Translations under genes and position numbers: made by a program | Notes under the pieces: generated by a model | Told to the model about the DNA's origin: nothing | Databases searched by the model: none | The model's input: the letters and a program-made list of their open reading frames with translations, nothing else | Part shown: in pieces, positions 19,738-38,411 of the stretch | How positions within the stretch are numbered: position 1 is the stretch's first letter | How the letters are laid out: each line of letters begins with the position of its first letter | From: an uncultured cyanobacterium | Lineage (GTDB): Bacteria > Cyanobacteriota > Cyanobacteriia > Cyanobacteriales > Nostocaceae | Assembly (NCBI GenBank): GCA_963706595.1 | Contig: OY970166.1 | Location: forward strand, 448,001 to 512,000 | Length of the DNA: 64,000 bases | Reading direction: 5' to 3'

Positions 19738-22700
19738 ATGAATCCCCAAAATTCTCATAGTCAAGAATTAATTCATCAGCTAGAAAAACTTCGACAAGAT
19801 TCTAGATTAACTAGAGTTATCAGTAATGATACAAATAATCATTGTTCTCTTAATTTATGGCTTCTTGAAATAACACAATCCAATTTAACAGAATATAGAT
19901 TGCTATACGGATTGATTATTGCTTCTACTTATTATGATCCCGATAAATGGTCTTGTGCTGATGGAAGTAAAACAACAAAGCCATTCGGAAAAGGAGAGAA
20001 ACAAAATCCCTACAAAGTTCGTATAGCTAAATTAACTCTTTACCATAACAGTGATGTGATTTTTTGTCTTATTAAAGAATTGTGTCAAGGTTTAACCTTA
20101 GCACAAGCTTGTCAAAAGATTAATATAGTTACTCCCACACATAAAAATGATTATGGGAGACTAGAACTTGCTTTAAACCAACAAATTTTAAGTAAGAATT
20201 TTGCTATTCGACCTACAATTTTATTAGAAACTCGAAATAGCAATATAAAGCTATTTCAAGAATTAAAACCTATCACCAGTCCTCTTGATCAAATATCGGG
20301 ATTTTCAGCTTCTCTATGGAATTGTGATAAGCTATCTTTATTTAACCAGCAAAATCAAAATGCTTATTTATCTGATACTGAATTAATTAAACATTGCTTA
20401 TCTCATTTAACACAAGAAACTGGATTAGACTTTTGTCAGGTAGATAGTAAGCGTTTAGGAAATATTGAATGGTTGTGCTTTCCTCTTACAGATGATTATG
20501 AACAAGAAAAAGTTAGCTTTGAGCTAGTAGATAATCATACTATTAAGTTAAAGATATTAACAGATACTTTTAACCCTAATACTGATTTATTAATACGTTG
20601 TCGCTGCTGGAATCAAGAAGAGGTTATTTTAGATAAGTGTAAAAATAGTCATGTTGATACTCAGCAATTAATAGAATTAGACTTTACTAGTAATCAAAAA
20701 TTAGAAGCAGTTATGATAATTGTTTGGGTTAGAGTAGAAGAAAAAGAATTGTGGGAAATTGTTTATGAAAATTTCATCAGTTTAGTAAATGAAATAAATA
20801 CAAGTATAGGTGTAGAAAATCCTAAGATTCAATTACCATTTCCTTCGTTAAAAAGATGGAAGACGGGTAATGTAAAAGCAATCATTGAGAAGAATGAATT
20901 GATTCAACCAGTATATTATGAAAATGTAACTATTAATCAAAACCAACTTTCTCCTTGGAAATCAGCCAATCAAGATATTCGTCAATTAACCAGTAAACTT
21001 TATCCTCAGTCTTCTGGAGGTCAATTTTTTCAAAAAGGTTGGAAAGGAAAAGATTCAAATAGTGATCCAGGTCGGTTAAGCTTTTTAGAATGGCTTAAAT
21101 CTATCACTAAAAATCCTCAATTCAGCAAAGTGTTATTTCTTGATCCTTATTTCGATGCTACTGATATTTTTGAAGTAATCGCCAGAGCAGAAGCCATTCA
21201 AACAGAATATGTAGTTGTTACGAATACACAACATATCTCACAAGACAAATCTTTAGAATTAAAAGCAGCTTGTGAAAAAAATTCACTTTTATTAAAAAAT
21301 TTGAAATTTAAATTATTGGATATCAGAAGTAAGAAAGGAGAAACAGGAAAAAGCAAACAACTATTCCATGATCGTTATATTTTAATTTTTGATCAACAAG
21401 GTAAAGTCAAAACGGGTTATCATCTATCCAACTCTCTTCAAGGTGCAACCAAGGATCATCCTTTACTGATTACTCCAATACCTGATGACATTATCAATAA
21501 TGTTGAATTATATGTTGCTGATTTACTTGAAGAGAATGACCAGCGAGAGGTGAAAACTCTTTTTTCATCTGTTGAACATCAACAAATATCTCGTTCAGCA
21601 CCAAGATCAACTGGACTATCTGCTATTCCTTACAATAATTTATTCTTTGCCGCATTACTGAATGAACATAGTTTGGTTTATCTTAGTCAATCAGATTTAA
21701 TGAATCAACTTCAAAGCAAAGGCATTTTAAAAGAAGATGATAGTTTTATAACTACCCAAGAGATTAATAGTAATATTAATTATTTTAGTCAGTTTATCAA
21801 TCAAGCTAGTCACGAGAATTTCACAAAATTATGGATATCTTTATCATCATTTTTATCAACATTTGATAATGTAGAATACTTGAATGATTTAGTAAGTCAA
21901 CTCAATACAAATCTTTATGTAAAAATTAAAGATTTTTTATTATATTCCTCAAGTTTAGCTCATGAAGAAGTAATTAATACATTAGAATTATCTCAAAATG
22001 GATATGTGAGAGAAGCTATAAATTTAGTTGACAAAGATTTTAAAGATGTACTTAAATATACAAAAATATTTATACAACAATGTGGAACTAACAAGTACAG
22101 TTCTCCTAATAATTGGAGTATCCAATATGGGGGTAAAGTTTTAATTGAAAATTCTCCTCAAGATTTTCTAGACGTGATATCTCATCTATATACGAATTTA
22201 AAAGCTGATCATGAAATCAATTGGCTGAATGCAAGTATTTTATTTTATCTCATCAAACAGTTAGTACAAGAGATTACATACATTTCTATTGGAAATAATA
22301 GAAATGAAAGATTATTAAATTTATTACCTACCAGCAACATTCCCTTAATTAGAGCAATGGGTACACAAAGCTTATGGTTTTCTTTAAACTATAAAAAGAT
22401 TAATTTAAAATTCGCATTGTCTATTGTTAGTCAATTACGGAGTATAGAAGAACAAGTATATTCTTTAGCTGAATGGGTTTACGATTTAAGAATTCAACTT
22501 AATCAAAATTACCCTTTGGAAAAATCTGCCCCAGAAATACTAGGAAAACAGATTTTTGCTCATATTTGTCAATTATGGCAATCTGATTTTTCGCAAACAA
22601 CTTTGCGTAATATTATTGCTCGGTTAAGTGGTCCTATAGACGGTAGTTCGGCTGTTTCTAATAACCGGGACTTCTTATTACCTTTACTCAATGCAGAAAA

Positions 22701-23160
22701 ATTAAATCTCGATAATATTTTGGAATTGTGGTTTGAAATATTATTAGAGCGTTTAAAAATTAATCTAGGTCAAAAAAGCTCAATAGATATTCAACCCTTG
22801 ATTTATCCATACGATTTAGAAATGATAGAAGTTTGTAGTTGGGCGCTTATAAATACCAATGCTGAGAATAGAGATAAATATTTAAAAAATATAACTAAAA
22901 TTTTTAAAGAATGTAAGCATATTTTACAAAAACCTTTTTCCCGTTCTCATAATTATGGTGCTTGGTTTGACGCTTTTGTGCTTATATTGTGGCTTGGTAT
23001 TTTTTATAAATTATGTTTAAAAAATAGTGATTTTGGAGCAGATAATGAATTAAAACAAAATATTCAATATATTGACAACTCAATTGAAAAGATAAATCCT
23101 CATGCAATTAATCCTAACGATTTAACTCAAGATATCCAAAATTATTATTTAATGATGTAG
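19738..23160 (+). CDS. Large protein with a central PLD-like domain (VPA1262-like); candidate defence gene
   Basis: FLDPYF...FHDRY...GYHLSNSLQG motifs; visibly AT-rich; no HIP1 site seen. Confidence 0.6.
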   Translation: MNPQNSHSQELIHQLEKLRQDSRLTRVISNDTNNHCSLNLWLLEITQSNLTEYRLLYGLIIASTYYDPDKWSCADGSKTTKPFGKGEKQNPYKVRIAKLTLYHNSDVIFCLIKELCQGLTLAQACQKINIVTPTHKNDYGRLELALNQQILSKNFAIRPTILLETRNSNIKLFQELKPITSPLDQISGFSASLWNCDKLSLFNQQNQNAYLSDTELIKHCLSHLTQETGLDFCQVDSKRLGNIEWLCFPLTDDYEQEKVSFELVDNHTIKLKILTDTFNPNTDLLIRCRCWNQEEVILDKCKNSHVDTQQLIELDFTSNQKLEAVMIIVWVRVEEKELWEIVYENFISLVNEINTSIGVENPKIQLPFPSLKRWKTGNVKAIIEKNELIQPVYYENVTINQNQLSPWKSANQDIRQLTSKLYPQSSGGQFFQKGWKGKDSNSDPGRLSFLEWLKSITKNPQFSKVLFLDPYFDATDIFEVIARAEAIQTEYVVVTNTQHISQDKSLELKAACEKNSLLLKNLKFKLLDIRSKKGETGKSKQLFHDRYILIFDQQGKVKTGYHLSNSLQGATKDHPLLITPIPDDIINNVELYVADLLEENDQREVKTLFSSVEHQQISRSAPRSTGLSAIPYNNLFFAALLNEHSLVYLSQSDLMNQLQSKGILKEDDSFITTQEINSNINYFSQFINQASHENFTKLWISLSSFLSTFDNVEYLNDLVSQLNTNLYVKIKDFLLYSSSLAHEEVINTLELSQNGYVREAINLVDKDFKDVLKYTKIFIQQCGTNKYSSPNNWSIQYGGKVLIENSPQDFLDVISHLYTNLKADHEINWLNASILFYLIKQLVQEITYISIGNNRNERLLNLLPTSNIPLIRAMGTQSLWFSLNYKKINLKFALSIVSQLRSIEEQVYSLAEWVYDLRIQLNQNYPLEKSAPEILGKQIFAHICQLWQSDFSQTTLRNIIARLSGPIDGSSAVSNNRDFLLPLLNAEKLNLDNILELWFEILLERLKINLGQKSSIDIQPLIYPYDLEMIEVCSWALINTNAENRDKYLKNITKIFKECKHILQKPFSRSHNYGAWFDAFVLILWLGIFYKLCLKNSDFGADNELKQNIQYIDNSIEKINPHAINPNDLTQDIQNYYLMM

Positions 23161-24132: not shown

Positions 24133-24212
24133 GTAGGGTGCGTTATGGACTTTAGTCCTAACGCACCGAAAATCTGGGATGGTGCGTTAGCCTTTGGCAT
24201 AACACACCCTAC
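24133..24212. repeat. REPIN-like doublet of GTAG REP hairpins
   Basis: GTAGGGTGCGTTATG ... CATAACACACCCTAC with internal palindromes. Confidence 0.75.
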
Positions 24213-24423
24213 TAGCGTGGCAAGCTTAAAATAGTGCATTAGGAAAAAGCCGAAAACATTGATTTATCTGAATTTTCTCAAAAATCTATTGCAACATTTT
24301 AGCCTTGCCACGCTACTACTGGACTGACAAGCTTAAAATAGTGCATTAGATAAAAGCAGAAAACATTGATTTATCTCAATTTTGTCAAAAATCTATTGCA
24401 ACATTTTAGCCTTGTCACCCCAC
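24212..24423 (+). mobile_element. Two tandem 105-bp IS630-derived MITEs (24212-24316, 24319-24423)
   Basis: Ends match the adjacent IS630 (CAAGCTTAAAATAGTGCATTAG / TGCAACATTTTA); separated by TA. Confidence 0.85.
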
Positions 24424-24425
24424 TA

Positions 24426-25674
24426 CTGGCATGGCAAGCTTAAAATAGTGCATTAGAATGGAGGAAAAAAAAGGAGAAATTGATGGGGAGAGGTCGTAGA
24501 GATAAAGTCATATTAGATACAGAGAAAAGAAAAAGATTAGAAGCGATCGCTCGCAACGGACAGGCCCCAGCCAAAAAAATATTGCACGCACAGGTGTTGT
24601 TAATGTGCGATGAGGGAGAGGGTGCAAGGAAAAAATGGACAGATGAAGAAATAAGTATAGGGTTAAGGGTTCATCGCAATACGGTGGCAAGAATCAGGAA
24701 GAGGTTCCTCGAACAGGGAGAAGAACCTGCCTTAAATCGTCATCAGAGGTTAAAACCACCAAATGTCAGCAAGATAGATGGTCAGACTGAAGCCCAAATC
24801 ATTGCATTATGTTGTTCTGAACCTCCCACGGGGCAAGCACACTGGAGTCTCAGATTACTGACGCAAGAAATTCAAAACCGAAAAATTATCATAGAAATTT
24901 CTAGGGAGACGATTAGAAAGACATTAAAAAAAACAAATTACGCCCCTGGAAAACAGAAAGATTTTGTATTCCCGAACGGGATATAGCACGTTTTGTCTCT
25001 CAAATGGAAGTAGTTTTAGACCTCTACAGCCAAGAACATAGTGATTTGGAACCTTTAATCTGTATGGATGAAGCTTCTAGACAATTAACAGGGCATCTTT
25101 ATGAGCCAAAACCAATGGAACCGGGTGAAGATGCAAAAGAAGATTATCACTATACTCGCGAAGGAGTCCAAGCTTTGTTCATGTTTTTTGACCCGATCAG
25201 AGGTTGGCGACGTGTCAGCAATCGCGCTCATCGGACTCGTGTTGATTGGGCCGAAGAAGTCCGTCAACTATTAGATGAAGACTATCCCCAAGCCACCAAG
25301 GTCAAATTGCTATGTGACAACCTCAACACTCATAGCATTACATCACTTTACGAAGCTTTTCCCGCACCAGAAGCTCACCGCTTGGCTAGGAGACTGGAGA
25401 TTTATTACACTCCTCGCAATGGAAGCTGGCTCAACGTTGCCGAAATTGAATTAAGCGTTTTAAGCCAACAGTGCCTAGACCGACGAATTCCTAGTATTTG
25501 TCAACTATCTAGAGAATTGACCGCTTGGCAAAACGAACGTAACCGCACCGCAGGTAAAGTTATTTGGCGTTTTACTACTGATGATGCTCGTATCAAACTT
25601 AAACATCTTTACCCAGTGTTTGAAACTCACAAAATCGTTGATTCTAATGCAACATTTTAAGCTTGTCACGCCAC
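24426..25674 (+). mobile_element. IS630-family insertion sequence
   Basis: TIR CTGGCATGGCAAGCTTAAAAT / ATTTTAAGCTTGTCACGCCAC, flanked by TA. Confidence 0.9.
24483..25660 (+). CDS. IS630 transposase, predicted -1 frameshift fusion
   Basis: A8 run 24926-24933 gives LKKNKLRPW..FVSQMEVVLD; DDE residues CMDE / CDNL / SWLNVAEIE. Confidence 0.9.
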
Positions 25675-25676
25675 TA

Positions 25677-25830
25677 CTGGCGTGACAAGCTTAAAATGTT
25701 GCAAAAAATTGTAGGTTGGGTTGACGTAAGGAAACCCAACATCATTGGTCGCGTTGGGTTGCGCTACGCTTAACCCAACCTACGTTTAATGCACTACGTT
25801 TAATGCACTATTTTAGCCTTGCCACGCTAC
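25677..25830 (-). mobile_element. Inverted IS630-end MITE carrying a REPIN
   Basis: IS630 ends in reverse order around GTAGGTTGGGTT..AACCCAACCTAC. Confidence 0.75.
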
Positions 25831-26032: not shown

Positions 26033-26506
26033 ATGTTTCACCGTTTATTAATTACCTCTTCTTTGCTCTTCACCAGTACCTTCAGTTTTCTCCCATCTGC
26101 ATTAGCTCAAAGCGTTGATATTATCTTCAGTGGTGTTGTTCAAGATTACGCTGTTTTCAGTCCTCCCAGTTGGGGAAAAATAGAAGAATTTGCCTCTACT
26201 AGTCACAAAAGTACAAGAGATTCTAGGACAGTAATTACCGCAGGTTTAAGTATCCAGTCAAGTACATCTACTAATATCACAGTTTCCTCTCTTCAGCCCA
26301 TCTCTGAATCTAAAACTCAAACTAAGTCTTTGGGGACTAGAGATACAGCAGCTTTCAGATTAGGTTCGACTGTAGACAGGAGTGAGTATATCAGCTTAAC
26401 TGCGGGTAAATCTAATTTAGAGATGGATATGTTGATAGAAAAATTAGACGAGTTAAAGGTTGGGGTTGAAACTTATTTAGTCACCGTCACCATCACTGCT
26501 GAATAA
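26033..26506 (+). CDS. Putative chaperone-usher pilin-like subunit (minor)
   Basis: Signal peptide ALA|Q; mature N-terminus QSVDIIFSGVV; C-terminal strand GVETYLVTVTIT. Confidence 0.6.
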   Translation: MFHRLLITSSLLFTSTFSFLPSALAQSVDIIFSGVVQDYAVFSPPSWGKIEEFASTSHKSTRDSRTVITAGLSIQSSTSTNITVSSLQPISESKTQTKSLGTRDTAAFRLGSTVDRSEYISLTAGKSNLEMDMLIEKLDELKVGVETYLVTVTITAE

Positions 26507-26518
26507 CATAAACATTCT

Positions 26519-26629
26519 GGCATTGCTGAAACCAAGTATAAATTTAAATGTAGAGACGTTCCATGGAACGTCTCTACAGGGGTTTTGACATCATCATAAA
26601 TCGTGTTCATACTTCAAATCAGCAACGCC
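26519..26629. mobile_element. MITE with central REP palindrome
   Basis: TIR GGCATTGCTGA / TCAGCAACGCC; TGTAGAGACGTTCCATGGAACGTCTCTACA. Confidence 0.7.
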
Positions 26630-27212
26630 AACATTCGTAATTTGTCCTTTGAACTACAAATTACGAATTACAAACTCGTGAAAAACCTTATGGTTATCAT
26701 TGTATATATTAATATACGGTTTTTTTATCCGTAGGATCAAGTGTTTTATCATATAAGTGCAATTGGACTATCAGAAATTACTAACGCTTTTATCGGGTTT
26801 TTAGTCATACGGCTAGCATTGTAAGTAGCTTTTATTACGAAAAAATCTTTTTCCCCTAGCTTCCAGCACTTTTCATTAGCCTAAAATAGTTAAGTGTTGA
26901 TACTGAGGTAATTGTATTTTTTGCTGGTTATTGTGTATGGAGGTTAGTCGTTCAACCAGTGTGTGTCGCTGATTATTTGGTAATTCAAACTAATTCAACA
27001 CATTGCATAGATTAATTTCATTGATTACTCAATCTGAGAAATTAATTGAAAATGCACATTTGCTGTTTTGGCAACAGCAAATGCACGTATAAAATACAGG
27101 TTGCGTGTAGAAGTGGATAGCTACACGTTGATCTCAATTTGGCTATTGAAACCTAACCTGTTTACTTTTTCGGTTTTTACTACAAAACCATCTACTTTGT
27201 AAGGATATCACT

Positions 27213-27689
27213 ATGTTGCGTCGTTCTTTGTGCGTTTCTGCTTTGATTTTGGCTGGTACTTTGGGTTTTGCTTCTAGCGCTAAAGCACAAACTGCTGATG
27301 TCCCCTTTGCTGGGATTGTCGGTACTTCATGTATTTTAATTCCTACGCCAGGTGTTTTGGTTCCTAATGCAGGCGACACTGCTCTCAGCTCTAGTGAAGG
27401 TACTGGTGCTACTAGTGGTACAGTCACTATTAATTGCAGTGGTAATACTGATGTTAGTGTTGCTCAACCTGTTATCGTTACTGTTCCCACAGACGCAGAT
27501 AGTGCAGTATTAGCGTCAACATTAACAGTTGGCGGTAACAGTATTTCCGGTATTGCTGCTGACATTCTGACATTAGTCTTTCCTGGCTTACCAGTAGTCG
27601 CTGATGTAGATATGACAGCAACTCTTGCAGGCGGCTTGCCAGCTGGTGCTTACAGTTATTCTGTGACTGTAACTGCTGTACCCGATTAG
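27213..27689 (+). CDS. Putative major pilin of a chaperone-usher pilus
   Basis: SD AAGGA; signal peptide AKA|Q; QTADVPFAGIV donor-strand pattern; Cys pair; GAYSYSVTVTA C-terminus. Confidence 0.7.
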   Translation: MLRRSLCVSALILAGTLGFASSAKAQTADVPFAGIVGTSCILIPTPGVLVPNAGDTALSSSEGTGATSGTVTINCSGNTDVSVAQPVIVTVPTDADSAVLASTLTVGGNSISGIAADILTLVFPGLPVVADVDMTATLAGGLPAGAYSYSVTVTAVPD

Positions 27690-27728
27690 AATCTTACTCT
27701 GAGGTAAGTTCAAGAATATTCCCTGATC

Positions 27729-27762
27729 TCTTGCCGCTATCATATCTCATCTGGCGGCAAGA
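27729..27762 (+). terminator. Stem-loop after the major pilin gene
   Basis: TCTTGCCGC ... GCGGCAAGA followed by AATTTT. Confidence 0.5.
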
Positions 27763-27849
27763 AATTTTCCCCCTGTGGTAATAGAGAAGATTAATTACCA
27801 GATACCCCACCTACACTTCTTTATCTGGGCAATATTGAAAATTTTGCAT

Positions 27850-28004
27850 GGGAGTATCCCAAATGTGCAAGTTTAATTTATGGGATTTTGGCTGACAGAA
27901 GAATGAAAAAACGAACCGCCAAGACGCAAAGAACGCCAAGGAAAGAGGATTTAATCGGTTTTTTGCCTCGGTTTTCTATATTTTTACCAAATTGGAATGC
28001 CCCC
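27850..28004. mobile_element. Degenerate MITE
   Basis: Imperfect TIR GGGAGTATCCCAAA / ATTGGAATGCCCCC; internal CGCCAAG repeat core shared with 45630-45655. Confidence 0.5.
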
Positions 28005-28049
28005 GATAGCAGTAATCTATTTAGCAAAAACATTAATAATGGTCATGTC

Positions 28050-28484
28050 TTGCACAGATTAGGCAAAATGCTATTAGTTACCGGGGGAATTTTAGCAGCT
28101 AATCTGATTTTAGCTCCCCGTGCGTTAGCAGCTTGCACTTTTGAAGAATTTAACTCTGGTCAATTAGTCAGCGTCGGCTCACCTCTAGCAACAAGTTTAG
28201 TCAGTTCTGGGGAGTCTGGAAGTTCTTCTGTGGAGGTTGCTGTTAACTGTGATATTTTGGGCGGTCAATTAACCGTTTTACCTCCAATTCAAAATGAAGG
28301 AATTACCACTGTACCTGCTTTAGCAACTGTCACAAATTTATCTAATGGTCAATCTACTACTAATCTCGTTCCTTTGATTTTGTCTCCTGGTAAAACGGTG
28401 CTTAAGGTTGATATGTCTGTAAATAACGTTGTTCCTTTGAGAGCAGGTACTTATAAATATACTGTTCGACTACAAATACTTTAG
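28050..28484 (+). CDS. Putative pilin-like subunit lacking a donor strand (tip candidate)
   Basis: Signal peptide ALA|AC; Cys pair; GTYKYTVRL C-terminus; start is TTG 28050 or ATG 28068. Confidence 0.6.
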   Translation: MHRLGKMLLVTGGILAANLILAPRALAACTFEEFNSGQLVSVGSPLATSLVSSGESGSSSVEVAVNCDILGGQLTVLPPIQNEGITTVPALATVTNLSNGQSTTNLVPLILSPGKTVLKVDMSVNNVVPLRAGTYKYTVRLQIL

Positions 28485-28494
28485 TTCACTAAAA

Positions 28495-29322
28495 ATGAAT
28501 TTATTAAAGAAGAGAGTTAATCAAGTTTCTGGCGTTTCACAAGCTGCTTTTGGCTTGGCTTTATCGGCGTTGTTGTTATTTCCTAGTGTTGCAAAAGCAC
28601 AAGTAAAGGTTTCACCGTTAGTCATTGAAACTCAAGCACAACGGGGACAAGCTCAAGGTATGGTTTCTATTACTAATATGAGTGATAGTCCATCTCGTGT
28701 TCGTGTTTATGCTGAACCTTTCACTTACAACCCTAATACAGGTTTTGAAACTTTACCTGCTGATACTCCCAATAACCTCACGCCATATCTGCAATTCTCG
28801 CCTCGTGAGTTAACTATTCAACCCAGACAAACTCGACGGGTGCGGATAATTTCTCGCTTGGCTCCTAATTTACCCGATGGTGAATATCGGGCAGCTGTAT
28901 TTAATGAAACTTTAACTGAACAAAAAGATAGTAGTGGCGCAACGGTTACTTTAGCAACTCGTGTGGGTGTAACTGTTTACGTAACTAAAGGTAATGCGTC
29001 TCCTAAGTTAACGGTGGATAATGCTAGTTTTGACTCGAAGCAAGAGATGGTGACACTCAATATTCGTAATACTGGTAAAGCATCGGCTCGTCCTAGTGTT
29101 TCTTGGAAGTTGCAGCGTGGAAATACGGTGGTGAAAACGGGAGAAATAGAATCTATTTCTATTATTGCAGAAAATGAACGTAATTTGTCATTAGATTATC
29201 GCAGTAAAGATGATGCATCTCTGATTCCTGGTAATTATCAACTGAGTGGTGAATTGGTTTGGGATGAAGGTAAAAGTAGAAGTCAATTGCCTTTTAAGTT
29301 AAATTTTACCGTTCCTCGATAA
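28495..29322 (+). CDS. PapD-like periplasmic pilus chaperone
   Basis: Signal peptide; VSPLVI, FSPRELTIQP.QTRRVRI, GEYRA, RNTGKA motifs. Confidence 0.8.
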   Translation: MNLLKKRVNQVSGVSQAAFGLALSALLLFPSVAKAQVKVSPLVIETQAQRGQAQGMVSITNMSDSPSRVRVYAEPFTYNPNTGFETLPADTPNNLTPYLQFSPRELTIQPRQTRRVRIISRLAPNLPDGEYRAAVFNETLTEQKDSSGATVTLATRVGVTVYVTKGNASPKLTVDNASFDSKQEMVTLNIRNTGKASARPSVSWKLQRGNTVVKTGEIESISIIAENERNLSLDYRSKDDASLIPGNYQLSGELVWDEGKSRSQLPFKLNFTVPR

Positions 29323-29588
29323 ATGGTCTAAATAAAGTTTAGAACCCCACCCCCAACCCCTCCCCGCAGGCGAGGAGGGGGTATGATATGGCTGATAGAA
29401 TTAGAAAATTTATAGTAACCGTCAATCAGTTGCTAATCCCAAAATACTTTAATTTTACCAGGAATTAGGAATATACATTTATCAATTTTTAGAGTCAATG
29501 TTATTAATATAATTTTTGTTTTAAAAATTGTATTTTTATAGTTATTTAGAAAAAATAGATATTTAAATTTTTGCACCTTTGTAGCAAT

Positions 29589-32216
29589 ATGAAAAACAAA
29601 ATATGCCAAATCGGCGGCTATTTTCTAATAGCGATCGCCTACATTTGTCCAATTAGCATAAACCCAGTCAATGCTAATAGTAACCCAACAGACATTACTG
29701 CCCAATTGCCTGAGAAATTTGAGGAATTTACGACATTTCCTGTGGGGATAAATGTCGGTAATCGTAATGTTATTTCTGGGGTTTTAGTTCGGGGCAAAGA
29801 AGATGGTTCTCAGGCGATTAATTTTGAAAATTGGCTATTACCTTACGATACAGTTATTCAGGTTTTAAGATTAAATGTTACGACTTTAGCTGATGGTCAA
29901 TTAGAAGTGCGATCGCCTGGAATTGTTACGCGCATAAATCCCCAAACATTGCTGAATGATCCTGAATTAGGTTTAGTCTTTTCTGTTGCTGATTTACGAA
30001 ATTTATTTGGGGTAGATGCCACTTTTGATATTGTTGAATATGCGGTTGTTTTAGAAGTTCCCTGGTTAAACTTCTCTAGGCGGAATATTGGCGACTCAGA
30101 ACTACCTTTAATCTTCGATGGGTTAACAGAAATCAACCCAGAAAAATTCAATATTGCAGCAGCAGAACAAAGAATATTTGCTAGTGGTTCCGCCAACACA
30201 TCCACAGATTTTTCCGGGGATTTTTTGGCTGTGGGGACGATTTTTGATGGTTCTTGGTTTATTCGCACAAATCAACCACAACTTGGTAGTTTTGAGCAAT
30301 GGAGCATTTCCGAGGCGCAGTTTCTCCGACAAACTAATCAAGCTGATTTATTTCTGGGTTCACAACCGACTTTTTGGCAAAGTTCAGGAACCAGTGACTA
30401 TTGGGGATTCACCTACATTCAACGCCAAGGTTTTACACCACCACAAAACTTTTATGCTGGAAGTTCTGACCCGCGCCAAAGGTTACAATCATCCCAAATT
30501 GGGCGGACAATTACCGGGAGAACTGAACCAGGTAGTTTAGTACAATTACTCCAAGGTTTTGGTAATAGAATTCTTGGCGAAATTTTTGTTGATTCTTCGG
30601 GAATTTACCGCTTTGAAGATGTTAAAAATAATGACATTTCTTTTAACTCTAATTACCAAGTTTTGATTTATCCTGAAGGCAGATTGACAGCAGCACCAGA
30701 AATTCGTGATGCTAGTTTTTCCACAGTACCGGGACAAATTCCGGCTGGTGCTTCTGCTTGGATTGTTTCTGGTGGTTTGCGGCGCGAAGTTACTAGTGCT
30801 TTAAATACCAGTTTATTGGGTGATTTTTCGGAATTTCGCGGTGGTGTAGCCGGACGTTGGGGTTTATCAGAAAACCTGACATTGGGTTTGGGTGGTGTGT
30901 ATGATGAATCGTTTCAAGGTTTAGCAGAATTATTCTATCGTCCCGATAATTTTCCCTTAGAGGTTGCTGTTTCCGCCCTCGGTGGTGAGGATTTAGATTT
31001 AATTGCTAATATTCGTTATGAACCCACTAAAAATTTAAGAGCGACATTTAGCAGTGACCGCTTTTCTAATCGTTTTAATGTTAACTGGAATGTTGTCCGT
31101 GGTTTGAGCTTATTTGCAACTACTGACAGTCGTAACCCCACATCTGCGGGTTTTCAAGCTAATTATAGTCGGAGAAATTTCTTTGCCTTCGTTCGTGCTA
31201 GTCTAGATACTGAAAGTAATTTTCGCTGGAATTTACTGCAACGTTTCGGTCAACTGGAACTGAACCAGCGAGGTAATGAGGTTGGGACTTTTTCCGAACT
31301 GAGTTATAACTTGTCTCGGAGCAGGTTCTTTAATTTGGGACATTCGTTGTTGTTAAATTACGAAACCCGCGCTCAAAATAGCGGTGACAATTTATTAACT
31401 ATGGGTTGGCGATATCGTTCTGATGATAGAGCTAGTGATGGTAACTATTTCTGGGAAGCACAAGCAGGTTACGGTATGGGTTCACAGGGTAACGGCTTAG
31501 TGGCTTCTTTGGGAACGACAGTCATACCGGGTGTGTTATTACGGGGACGTTATCAGGGCGTATCGTTAACTTCTGATGAATCCAGTTTCAGTATTGATTT
31601 GGTTTCTAGTTTAAACTTTCAAGGGGGTATTAGTCCAGGCGATCGCCGTTCTAATTATTTACGTACCCAAGGCGGTTTATTAATTAAGACATTTCTGGAT
31701 AAAAATAACAACGGTAAACAGGACCCAGGGGAAGAATATTATACAGACCCAGAAGGGGCAATGGTGTCAGTCAATAACCAACCTGTTAAAAGTTTACGGG
31801 CAGAAGTGGGAAGCGATCGCACTAAATTACGCCTGACCCCAGGAAAATATCGTATTGACATTGACCCGGCTGGTTTTCCTCCCGACTGGCGCGCCGAAAC
31901 TGATGCTTTTGCAGTCAATGTAGTGGCTGGTAGTTATACTCGTGTAATGATACCCTTAACTCAGTCTTACAGTTTTTCTGGTGTAGCGACAGATGCTGAA
32001 GGTAAGGCTCTAGCAGGAGCAAGAGTAGAAGCCATATCAACAGGTACAGGCAAACGCAGTTTTTCTGTAACCAACACCGCCGGGGTATATTATTTAGAAG
32101 GCTTGCAACAAGGTGAATACACGTTGCTGGTCAATGGCAAATCCATTCAGATGATTCAACTAGATACAAACTCGCCACCTTATCAAGAAATGCAAATTCA
32201 GCAGCCTAGTAACTAA
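29589..32216 (+). CDS. Putative outer-membrane usher-like protein with C-terminal Ig-like (SdrD-B / carboxypeptidase-regulatory) domains
   Basis: Signal peptide; long amphipathic beta-strand region; WGLSENLTLG; DKNNNGKQDPGE; TNTAGVYYLEGLQQGEYTL; follows the chaperone gene. Confidence 0.7.
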   Translation: MKNKICQIGGYFLIAIAYICPISINPVNANSNPTDITAQLPEKFEEFTTFPVGINVGNRNVISGVLVRGKEDGSQAINFENWLLPYDTVIQVLRLNVTTLADGQLEVRSPGIVTRINPQTLLNDPELGLVFSVADLRNLFGVDATFDIVEYAVVLEVPWLNFSRRNIGDSELPLIFDGLTEINPEKFNIAAAEQRIFASGSANTSTDFSGDFLAVGTIFDGSWFIRTNQPQLGSFEQWSISEAQFLRQTNQADLFLGSQPTFWQSSGTSDYWGFTYIQRQGFTPPQNFYAGSSDPRQRLQSSQIGRTITGRTEPGSLVQLLQGFGNRILGEIFVDSSGIYRFEDVKNNDISFNSNYQVLIYPEGRLTAAPEIRDASFSTVPGQIPAGASAWIVSGGLRREVTSALNTSLLGDFSEFRGGVAGRWGLSENLTLGLGGVYDESFQGLAELFYRPDNFPLEVAVSALGGEDLDLIANIRYEPTKNLRATFSSDRFSNRFNVNWNVVRGLSLFATTDSRNPTSAGFQANYSRRNFFAFVRASLDTESNFRWNLLQRFGQLELNQRGNEVGTFSELSYNLSRSRFFNLGHSLLLNYETRAQNSGDNLLTMGWRYRSDDRASDGNYFWEAQAGYGMGSQGNGLVASLGTTVIPGVLLRGRYQGVSLTSDESSFSIDLVSSLNFQGGISPGDRRSNYLRTQGGLLIKTFLDKNNNGKQDPGEEYYTDPEGAMVSVNNQPVKSLRAEVGSDRTKLRLTPGKYRIDIDPAGFPPDWRAETDAFAVNVVAGSYTRVMIPLTQSYSFSGVATDAEGKALAGARVEAISTGTGKRSFSVTNTAGVYYLEGLQQGEYTLLVNGKSIQMIQLDTNSPPYQEMQIQQPSN

Positions 32217-37065: not shown

Positions 37066-37105
37066 CAGGCGATAGTTGACTGACAAAACAGGGAAGGCTT
37101 CATTT

Positions 37106-38411
37106 ATGACTCAGGCAATCACCAAAGATACCCAATCAACAACTTCGACTTTAAAAGCTTTAAAGTGTAAAGAATGTGGTACTGAATACGAACTTAAAGC
37201 CAGTCATGTCTGTGAGTTATGCTTTGGTCCACTGGAAGTTAAATATGATTTCAGTGAGTTACGCCTGACGATTACGCGTGAAAAAATTGCCGCCGGTCCC
37301 AATTCAATTTGGCGCTACCGTCCCTTTCTGCCCGTCGCAACTGATAATGTAATTGATGTGGGAACAGGGATGACTCCCCTAGTCCGTTCTCATCGCCTGG
37401 CTCGTCGCCTGGGTTTAAATAAGCTTTATATTAAAAATGATGCTGTAAATATGCCCACCCTGAGCTTTAAAGATCGGGTGGTGTCAGTGGCTCTCAGCCG
37501 AGCGCGTGAATTAGGTTTTACCACTGTTTCCTGTGCTAGCACTGGTAACTTGGCAAATTCTACAGTCTGCGATCGCAGCTCATGCCGGTTTAGATTGTTG
37601 TGTATTCATCCCCGCAGATTTAGAAGCAGGTAAAATCCTGGGTAGCTTAATCTACAGTCCTACACTGATGGCAGTTAAGGGCAACTACGACCAGGTAAAT
37701 CGTCTCTGCTCGGAAGTCGCTAATACACACGGCTGGGGTTTTGTCAATATTAATTTACGCCCTTATTATTCTGAAGGTTCCAAAACTCTAGGCTTTGAAG
37801 TTGCAGAACAACTCGGTTGGGAACTACCAGATCATGTAGTTGCTCCTCTCGCCTCTGGTTCACTATTCACCAAAATTTATAAAGGTTTCCAAGAATTTGT
37901 GGAAGTCGGTTTGGTGGAAGGTAAAGATGTCCGCTTCAGTGGCGCTCAACCCGAAGGTTGTTCACCCATCGCCCAAGCATTTAAAGAAGGGCGTGACTTT
38001 ATTAAACCAGTGAAACCGAATACAATTGCTAAATCACTGGCAATTGGCAATCCCGCAGATGGTATTTATGCTGTTGAGCTAGCCAAGAAAACTGGCGGTA
38101 ATATTGAATCAGTCAATGATGCTGAAATTATTGACGGCATCAAGCTACTAGCAGAAACCGAAGGCATTTTCACAGAAACAGCAGGTGGTACAACCATTGC
38201 TGTGCTGAAAAAATTAGTCGAAGCCGGCAAGATTGACCCAGATGAAACTACAGTAGTTTACATCACTGGTAATGGTTTAAAAACCCAAGAAGCAGTCCAA
38301 GGCTACGTCGGCGAACCTTTGACAATTGATGCTAAACTAGATAGCTTTGAACGTGCCTTAGAGCGCTCTCGTACACTTGACCGCTTGGAATGGCAACAAG
38401 TTCTCGTTTAG
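37106..38411 (+). pseudogene. thrC: Threonine synthase-family PLP enzyme with a +1 frameshift (real lesion or sequencing error)
   Basis: N-terminal CKEC/CELC; PTLSFKDR; ASTGNLA; deleting T37566 restores NSTAAIAAHAG and joins the two ORFs. Confidence 0.85.

Follow-up and report, generated by a model that had tools for sequence, protein, structure and literature searches.

Several chaperone-usher systems have been published from cyanobacteria. The Synechocystis proteins CccS, CccP and Slr0019 were described together with cyanobacterial operons defined by the families PF05229 (SCPU), PF00345 (PapD_N) and PF00577 (Usher) (PMC4390875); Synechocystis mutants adhere less well and their type IV pili are altered (10.1101/130278), with cccS and cccP mutants keeping thin pili and losing thick ones and a usher mutant changing type IV pilus shape and adhesion (PMC4390875; 10.1101/130278). 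A SCPU-PapD-FimD cluster is reported from Nodularia (PMC5853447), a chaperone-usher pathway (CUP) gene pair is mentioned for Limnospira (10.64898/2026.10.22.760931), and cyanobacteria are counted among the hosts of archaic pili (PMC10104325). A non-type-IV tubular (CT) pilus has been solved from Microcystis (PMC12397347), and cyanobacterial appendages other than type IV pili mostly have no assigned genes (PMC4390875).

Here we examine a five-gene cluster in a 64,000-nucleotide (nt) stretch, the window, of an uncultured member of the Nostocaceae (contig OY970166.1, assembly GCA_963706595.1), in which a first-pass annotation had proposed a chaperone-usher-like pilus pathway with putative roles in adhesion, aggregation or symbiosis. 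Its premise that the studied cyanobacterial pili are type IV is contradicted by the chaperone-usher systems in print (PMC4390875, 10.1101/130278, PMC5853447) and by the CT pilus (PMC12397347). Its description of the pathway as divergent and uncharacterised stands for the clade, of which no description was found in the literature searched (figures and supplements such as PMC4390875 Fig. 2 and 10.1101/130278 Fig. S2f could include such loci), and is too strong for cyanobacterial chaperone-usher systems in general. The cluster was found as announced: five open reading frames (ORFs), all on the forward strand and encoding probably secreted proteins, namely three small predicted subunits (A, B and C), a chaperone and an usher (Table 1), with N-termini that by eye run as a signal-peptide-like basic/hydrophobic stretch up to A-x-A. 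The usher fold, an incomplete Ig pilin, a chaperone with a proline/arginine signature and the co-conservation of the genes together define a non-classical chaperone-usher system, very probably an intact machinery that works like ECP, CFA and Csu.

Detection by standard family models

Standard family models recover little of this cluster. Among the five proteins, Pfam gave only CarboxypepD_reg above the cut-off, at the end of the usher, plus sub-threshold Ig-like matches; A, B and C had no match (SCPU, 0/3 window subunits), and NCBIfam returned nothing relevant for the five proteins. PF00577 matched 0 of 43 family ushers (a set that contains the window usher and also some fragments) while its positive controls L127, L129 and L132 matched; the alternative-clade usher models PF17271 and PF16967 found no match among the same 43, and CooC_C gave only sub-threshold matches, in 3/43, with a weak one in the last domain of the window usher (E 0.013). 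PapD_N matched 6 of 89 chaperone homologues and SCPU 1 of 46 aligned subunits, weakly (E 8e-4). Neither PF00577 nor PF00345 was found in the host genome (G000, 94% complete), with working controls; PF05229 gave no match there either, and as it gave none in the control genomes its absence is not shown. Database pipelines nevertheless already give many homologues of the chaperone the name 'P pilus assembly protein, chaperone PapD'. Judged on these profiles, the five-gene system, which misses Pfam Usher, PapD_N and SCPU, is a Pfam-invisible clade.

The usher model

Structures were predicted for the usher, for B and for the chaperone-B pair. The usher-type barrel expected by the first-pass annotation was borne out by the AlphaFold2 model (133 alignment rows), which reached a predicted local distance difference test score (pLDDT) of 92.6 and a predicted template modelling score (pTM) of 0.84 and runs from an N-terminal alpha/beta domain through six long strands (residues 158-251), a six-strand sandwich (277-347) and twenty strands (360-647) to two beta domains (666-838). 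As modelled, the N-terminus would be a periplasmic domain and the C-terminus two Ig/prealbumin-like domains, which, with a barrel that carries its plug after strand 6, is the layout of FimD and PapC. The top 15 listed Foldseek rows were all FimD/PapC (FimD E 6.7e-26, PapC 2.3e-20), at TM scores of 0.47-0.57 (0.45-0.57 in the overall comparison with FimD and PapC) and 13% identity, and in a VIA search the top 8 rows were again FimD/PapC, with Z 13.3-13.8 over 548-666 residues against at most 13.1 over ~200-240 residues for unrelated barrels. The barrel bounds coincide with the FimD/PapC translocation domains, model residues 159-646 superposing on FimD 139-656 with a root-mean-square deviation (rmsd) of 4.6 Å over 336 residues (barrel only, FimD and PapC: 4.6-4.7 Å over about 335).

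The model also departs from these relatives. A helix between strands 13 and 14 is a feature of FimD and PapC, and the host usher model has none there. DSSP gave 6 + 20 = 26 candidate barrel strands, a tentative count; their in/out topology is consistent, with short turns on the periplasmic side, where both ends also lie, and with a polarity that alternates for the most part. Fim/Usher barrels are described as having 24 (or 16) strands (10.64898/2026.03.07.710327), and with 26 candidate strands rather than 24 the pore is predicted from the model to be wider than known examples.

At the profile level, hhalign linked the usher with a first group of cyanobacterial ushers that match PF00577 (95%, E 3e-8, 306 columns), and a second PF00577-positive group, two sigma-type ushers, barely aligned (12%). 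Against single-sequence templates, which have low sensitivity, EcpC scored 3% and FimD was not detectable. In the PDB, the usher profile found nothing but C-terminal Ig-like matches, and single-sequence PDB searches with the chaperone and with the usher gave no match.

Pilin subunits and their classes

The three small proteins had been described as subunits ending in a G-x(1-3)-Y-x-x-(T/V)-V strand; A, B and C all carry this motif, and a phmmer comparison within the cluster shows them to be mutually homologous (E 2e-9 to 5e-9 for A-B, 5e-5 to 2e-4 for B-C). B combines a signal peptide (residues 1-25), a donor strand D-V-x-F-x-G-x-V (27288-27323) and one Cys pair, and its AlphaFold2 model (46 alignment rows, pLDDT 91.6) has the incomplete Ig fold that the first-pass annotation anticipated, ending in strand F and leaving residues 1-14 outside the sandwich, free and in no strand. 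All but one of the 16 leading Foldseek rows for this model are chaperone-usher pilins (E 1.5e-3 and weaker), headed by CfaB, CfaE and CS17, and a wide VIA search likewise put CS17 (Z 7.2, 122 residues aligned at rmsd 11.7) and CfaE (Z 7.1-7.2, 124 residues at rmsd 3.5) at the top; profile searches of the PDB with the pilins returned unrelated beta proteins only. Across 69 subunits, the D of the donor-strand consensus is kept in 41 and the first V in 57, positions that, unlike three others of the consensus, were not used to select the set.

Subunit A has an N-terminal donor-type strand without the conserved Cys pair, and C has the Cys pair and no N-terminal donor strand, its mature chain beginning A-C-T-F. 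Sorting 129 subunits by these features gave 28 of class A (donor strand, no Cys pair), 71 of class B (both), 25 of class C (Cys pair, no donor strand) and 5 with neither; the regex classifier put two donor-bearing subunits (L069:5465, L125:4804) in class C, whose true number is about 23/129. The commonest patterns over 55 loci were B (23), AB (12), ABC (5) and BC (5), class B being the sole class found alone. Up to five class-B copies occur in one locus (L091), and class C, where present, is always the last subunit and adjoins the chaperone gene. The stem-loop 3' of B reaches -17.2 kcal/mol (region z -2.6; 2/200 shuffles as good), and hairpins of -15 kcal/mol or lower stand behind 39/70 class-B, 4/27 class-A and 0/24 class-C genes and 17/61 chaperone genes; the window locus has one behind A and one behind B. 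The stem-loop 3' of B likely terminates the pilin message or makes it more stable.

B is likely the major pilin and would form the fibre shaft, and A, from its sequence features, is likely a minor subunit, either adaptor or terminator. C is a candidate single-domain tip cap: without a donor strand it could only start a fibre, and it would therefore be the tip. Single-domain caps that carry no donor strand occur in Afa/Saf-type fibres. No two-domain tip adhesin of the CfaE/EcpD type is present in the window, no lectin-pilin adhesin was seen, and among the forward-strand ORFs of the 80 loci examined (the best 80 of 149 confirmed genome loci) only one above 215 amino acids (aa) matched the pilin profile, a pilin-pilin tandem. 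The host genome has no further pilin-profile match, though it may encode an unlinked adhesin. The combination of three single-domain subunit classes (Cys-less, major, and cap without donor strand) with no two-domain adhesin is unusual.

Ratios of nonsynonymous to synonymous substitution rates (dN/dS) against the related genome G003, taken from one genome pair with few changes, were 0.70 for A, 1.15 for B, 0.44 for C, 0.32 for the chaperone and 0.20 for the usher. The subunits are thus highest; 33 of 40 other ORF pairs lie at or below 0.34, and six of the seven higher ones overlap an opposite-strand ORF. The high subunit values are suggestive of surface antigens.

Two further arrangements were seen in related loci. 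A natural tandem gene (L125:5491-6345) joins a Cys-less cap-type domain to a pilin with a donor-type strand and Cys; its donor strand directly behind the cap domain gives the layout of cis complementation, and it offers a possible model for the origin of two-domain tip adhesins. Orphan subunit pairs (a short donor strand subunit plus class C) lie 2-6 kb 3' of the usher in L055, L060, L062, L063, L067, L074, L078 and L085, which suggests alternative tips.

The chaperone and its predicted complex with B

The predicted PapD-superfamily membership of the fourth protein was upheld: it is a periplasmic, two-domain chaperone of the non-classical type, without cysteine, whose profile finds EcpB in the PDB (5dfk, E 0.006) and scores 88% against EcpB vs 0.6% against FimC in hhalign. 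Pro68 and Arg97 (codon 28888-28890) are invariant in 89/89 rows. Its F1-G1 region aligns position by position with EcpB, such that Pro68 corresponds to Pro60, Arg97 to Arg89 and the donor strand G1 (V116-L118-T120-V122; 28942-28968) to A111/A113/A115/I117, with a shared R-V/I-G motif. The invariant proline is a superfamily-wide chaperone residue, and Arg89 of CsuC and EcpB is the hallmark of archaic and alternative chaperones (PMC4654587). The column aligned with FimC Arg8 holds V 61, I 18, R 6 and T 2 of 89, so that the classical Arg8 is absent and the chaperone lacks the Arg8/Lys112-type carboxylate anchor of the classical (Fim/Pap) class. In domain 2, from which non-classical chaperones bring a second (Tyr, Arg) anchor to the C-terminus of the subunit, Arg194 (88/89) and Tyr213 (89/89) are conserved; the latter may be a plain Ig tyrosine corner.

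The predicted chaperone-B complex scored 0.85 vs 0.01 for the best of three controls, past a mark that 116/157 solved and 2/215 mismatched pairs reach; at least 86% of the contacts recur between runs, and the partner pLDDT is at least 86. Chaperone residues 117-123 run parallel to pilin 124-132 (pairs 118:126, 119:127, 120:128, 122:130 and 123:131), and V/I122, which aligns to EcpB Ile117 (P0), is closest to pilin residue 130; the interface also holds chaperone 1-10 and pilin 9-26, with pilin 1-8 not listed. As modelled, this is the geometry of donor-strand complementation, and because similar complexes are already solved the score shows likeness rather than binding.

Distribution, synteny and phylogeny

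The nearest named homologues are those of Nodularia sphaerocarpa (B 84%, chaperone 88%), and Nostoc punctiforme PCC 73102 holds a homologue (ACC82682.1). The usher occurs in 15/41 related genomes and 5/10 of the same genus, and, counting distant paralogues and fragments, in 30/301 genomes of a phylum sample and 19/37 of the host family; PF00577-type ushers occur in 17/301 and 7/37, respectively. Filamentous cyanobacteria commonly carry the host-type system. Six of the 17 PF00577-positive genomes carry both types, which marks them as paralogous systems. Nine of the 80 loci had too little upstream DNA, and in 61 of the 71 informative ones a chaperone lies within 3.5 kb upstream of the usher; 57 of 59 chaperone-bearing loci with enough sequence hold one or more pilin genes. 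The synteny that the first-pass annotation foresaw is therefore present across genomes.

A chaperone tree of 32 rows set the host clade (14 rows, 99/99) apart from EcpB/EcpE, from two groups of cyanobacterial chaperones that match Pfam and from a second divergent clade of cyanobacteria (7 rows); it does not settle the order of the clades, I and II joining at 85/69 and FimC standing on a long branch. Language-model neighbours in Fusobacteriota, Gemmatimonadota, Pseudomonadota and Bacteroidota serve as a lead only. In a plasmid collection the usher had no match and the chaperone two weak ones, to actinomycete records.

Relationship to named clades

The locus shares features with several described systems and coincides with none. 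It resembles the alternative (alpha) ECP in the chaperone alignment given above, and CFA/I-class pili in the CfaB, CfaE and CS17 matches of B and the weak CooC_C match of the usher. It differs from EcpA/EcpB/EcpC in the usher (3% against EcpC), the pilin profile (0.2% against EcpA), the cysteine-free chaperone and its separate tree clade, and from the alternative clade at large in lacking a two-domain tip adhesin and in having an usher without an above-threshold match to the CooC/CfaC/EcpC/TcfC type. With archaic (sigma) Csu of Acinetobacter and CupE of Pseudomonas, whose pilins stand at Foldseek ranks 14-16 for B, it shares the arginine signature, a donor strand followed by a Cys pair and several small subunit genes before the chaperone; it departs from them in SCPU (1/46), in the 12% usher profile score and in having no CsuE/CupE6-like adhesin. 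Compared with FimD/PapC, the missing Arg8 of the chaperone adds to the strand count.

The published Synechocystis and Nodularia systems belong to the same host group and have the same gene order. The PF00577-positive cyanobacterial systems, assigned to the published type by Pfam content and not by aligning Synechocystis proteins, are homologous to the host locus, in the usher as noted and in the chaperones (profile E 1e-15 to 3e-5). The PF00577, PF00345 and PF05229 matches that define the published type are, however, missing here, and the chaperones fall in distinct, fully supported tree clades. The CT pilus is likewise a non-type-IV cyanobacterial pilus and has Nostocales homologues; identity with it was rejected, since its fold consists of beta-hairpins plus a helix-turn-helix and its cluster holds O-GlcNAc transferase/FkbM genes and no chaperone-usher pair (PMC12397347). 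The host system is thus a member of the chaperone-usher superfamily but of no named clade; its chaperone and pilin have features of the alternative type, and its usher stands nearer to those of other cyanobacterial systems.

Proposed assembly and competing explanations

We put at roughly two in three the probability that the locus builds a thin surface fibre of protein with an adhesive role, a product and function that we infer from the machinery. Sec would export all five proteins, as their signal peptides imply, and the chaperone is predicted to bind each subunit and lend it strand G1 parallel to the subunit's last strand, with Arg97, by its conservation, likely anchoring the subunit C-terminus as Arg89 does in EcpB and CsuC. 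From the folds, the complexes would dock on the periplasmic domains of the usher, the plug would move aside, and in donor-strand exchange each D-V-x-F-x-G-x-V strand would fill the groove of the preceding subunit. C would form the tip, B the likely shaft and A, without a disulfide, an adaptor or terminator. By analogy with Synechocystis adhesion, the fibre would likely serve surface attachment or filament aggregation. This is the known chaperone-usher mechanism and so adds no new principle.

Several observations weigh against such a fibre. The structural matches of B are individually weak, with no Foldseek E below 1e-3 and with middling VIA Z values that stay below 8. The chaperone-B complex resembles solved chaperone-pilin structures, and its score may reflect that likeness; Arg97, Arg194 and Tyr213 are not among its listed contacts. 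The dN/dS of B near 1 could mean relaxed selection, given one genome pair and few changes. In 10 of the 71 informative loci no chaperone lies near the usher, and two relatives have internally deleted clusters (L023:51-2152 in G007, L040:7806-8415 in G024), so that the system is often lost. Finally, the related Synechocystis system is reported to affect type IV pili and not to make a filament of its own (10.1101/130278; PMC4390875).

Next after the fibre ranks an explanation that we consider unlikely while giving it real weight: the same machinery would yield no long pilus and instead short oligomers, an amorphous coat of subunits on the sheath, on hormogonia or on akinetes, or else a factor that is exported and tunes type IV pili, as proposed for CccS/CccP/Slr0019. 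Chaperone-usher pathways also build non-fimbrial structures (PMC4390875), the cccS/cccP and usher mutants alter thick or type IV pili and adhesion, and the locus lacks a two-domain adhesin, with a single long pilin-matching ORF over 80 loci; against this reading, a dedicated cap class, the class-B hairpin, the low dS and high dN of B and its up to five copies per locus fit an abundant polymer. Quite improbable, in our estimate, is a silent or decaying accessory locus that is intact in the host genome by chance. It would suit the patchy carriage within the genus (5/10), the collapsed clusters of G007 and G024, the IS630 element that lies 370 nt 5' of A and the B dN/dS of about 1; on the other side, none of the five frames is interrupted, purifying selection acts on usher and chaperone, and all the signature residues are kept. 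A usher-derived pore that secretes Ig-like proteins without donor-strand polymerisation, as part of no chaperone-usher fibre system, is highly improbable: it would suit the missing Usher, PapD_N and SCPU matches in window proteins and genome (PF05229 being searched there without a working control) and the stand-alone barrel relatives of 460-660 aa that lack chaperone or pilin (L136-L138), but it is opposed by the incomplete Ig subunit, the free donor strand with its alternating hydrophobic register, the parallel G1-F pairing and the gene order. A surface fibre built by donor-strand exchange remains our preferred explanation.

Features and genomic setting

Table 1. Features of the cluster, numbered from the first position of the window
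Feature	Position	Strand	Remark
Subunit A gene	26033-26506	+	157 aa ORF
Subunit B gene	27213-27689	+	158 aa ORF
RNA stem-loop	27729-27762	+	11 bp, 3' of the likely major pilin gene B
Subunit C gene	28050-28484 from ATG	+	144 aa; mechanical ORF from TTG 27888, 198 aa
Chaperone gene	28495-29322	+	275 aa ORF
Usher gene	29589-32216 from ATG	+	875 aa; 881 aa if TTG 29571
Usher barrel	about 30147-31616	+	from the model
Usher plug sandwich, after strand 6	about 30504-30716	+	from the model
Four HIP1 octamers	29631, 29909, 31639, 31813 (span 29631-31820)		all inside the usher gene

Long gaps separate the genes (706 nt for A-B, 360 nt for B-C, 10 nt for C-chaperone and 266 nt for chaperone-usher), and a single transcript is therefore not assumed; a promoter and terminator scan stayed at chance level (16 promoters vs 15.7 expected, 4 terminators vs 5.3). 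The first-pass annotation had read the HIP1 sites of the usher gene as a sign of long residence in cyanobacteria. The four sites are there, but their density (4 in 6184 bases vs 4.8 expected at the genome's 0.78/kb) is the genome average and the A, B, C and chaperone genes have none, so the locus can be called host-like and little more. Its guanine-cytosine (GC) content is 39.5% vs 41.3% for the genome, and each of the five genes occurs just once in the host genome.

The IS630-family element just upstream of the cluster (24390-25710) has 70-nt terminal inverted repeats, extra end-repeat copies at 24210-24464 and 25643-25830, and a transposase broken into a helix-turn-helix frame (24480-24986) and a DDE_3 frame (25004-25660). 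Farther upstream (19738-23160), a VPA1262-family protein of 1140 aa (NCBIfam NF040699, E 1e-215), from a family with a possible defence function, is encoded in a 29-31% GC island and was probably acquired. Downstream (37076-38411), a threonine-synthase-like gene is split into two overlapping frames (37076-37633 and 37533-38411) that match a single ORF in G003, pointing to a frameshift or an assembly error. In a metatranscriptome run (X1, share 0.06), contigs matched stretches of A, of B, of C-chaperone and of the usher at ~85-95% identity; these come from a relative and were not counted as evidence for expression.

Among related loci, both internally deleted clusters have the beginning of a pilin gene fused to the back portion of the usher. 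The second divergent cyanobacterial clade (L033-L038, L135) has an usher with ~26% identity, subunits of 190-200 aa and up to six subunit genes, and in 4 of its 7 loci an upstream protein of 680-910 aa with PPC domains and ELW-type repeats is a candidate adhesin. An extracytoplasmic function (ECF)-type sigma factor gene, possibly a dedicated regulator, lies just 5' of a paralogous cluster in L029:4150-6093 (G003) and L031:6755-7858 (G001); an apparent ECF-sigma-pilin fusion in L029 was rejected, since the pilin part opens with a signal peptide of its own at Met474, which makes a pair of genes that share one frame the probable reading. Stand-alone truncated usher relatives of 456-654 aa (L136:5674-7068, L137:2617-3987, L138:2243-4207), with no chaperone or pilin genes nearby and no Pfam match in the two scanned, are possibly repurposed barrels. 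In L089, L092 and L104 a conserved gene of no recognised family (420-530 aa protein) stands between chaperone and usher, and L032:1344-1886 is a true SCPU pilin gene (PF05229 E 8.5e-22) that points towards the end of a host-type usher.

Biological significance

In its widest form, the finding would be a major chaperone-usher clade without prior description, commonest in heterocyst-forming cyanobacteria, with a 26-stranded usher wider than any solved, no lectin adhesin, three single-domain classes (donor-less cap, disulfide-bonded shaft and Cys-less adaptor or terminator) and a shaft pilin under diversifying selection, which may be the source of non-type-IV filaments that have so far lacked an explanation on Nostocales cells. 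We hold this full statement tentatively, at somewhat short of even odds. If the model holds, its usher would be the first with 26 strands. Within the host family the clade is a second and more frequent cyanobacterial chaperone-usher type, present in 19/37 genomes vs 7/37 for the PF00577 type, and it provides named genes with which to ask what mediates mat formation, aggregation and host attachment in Nostocales.

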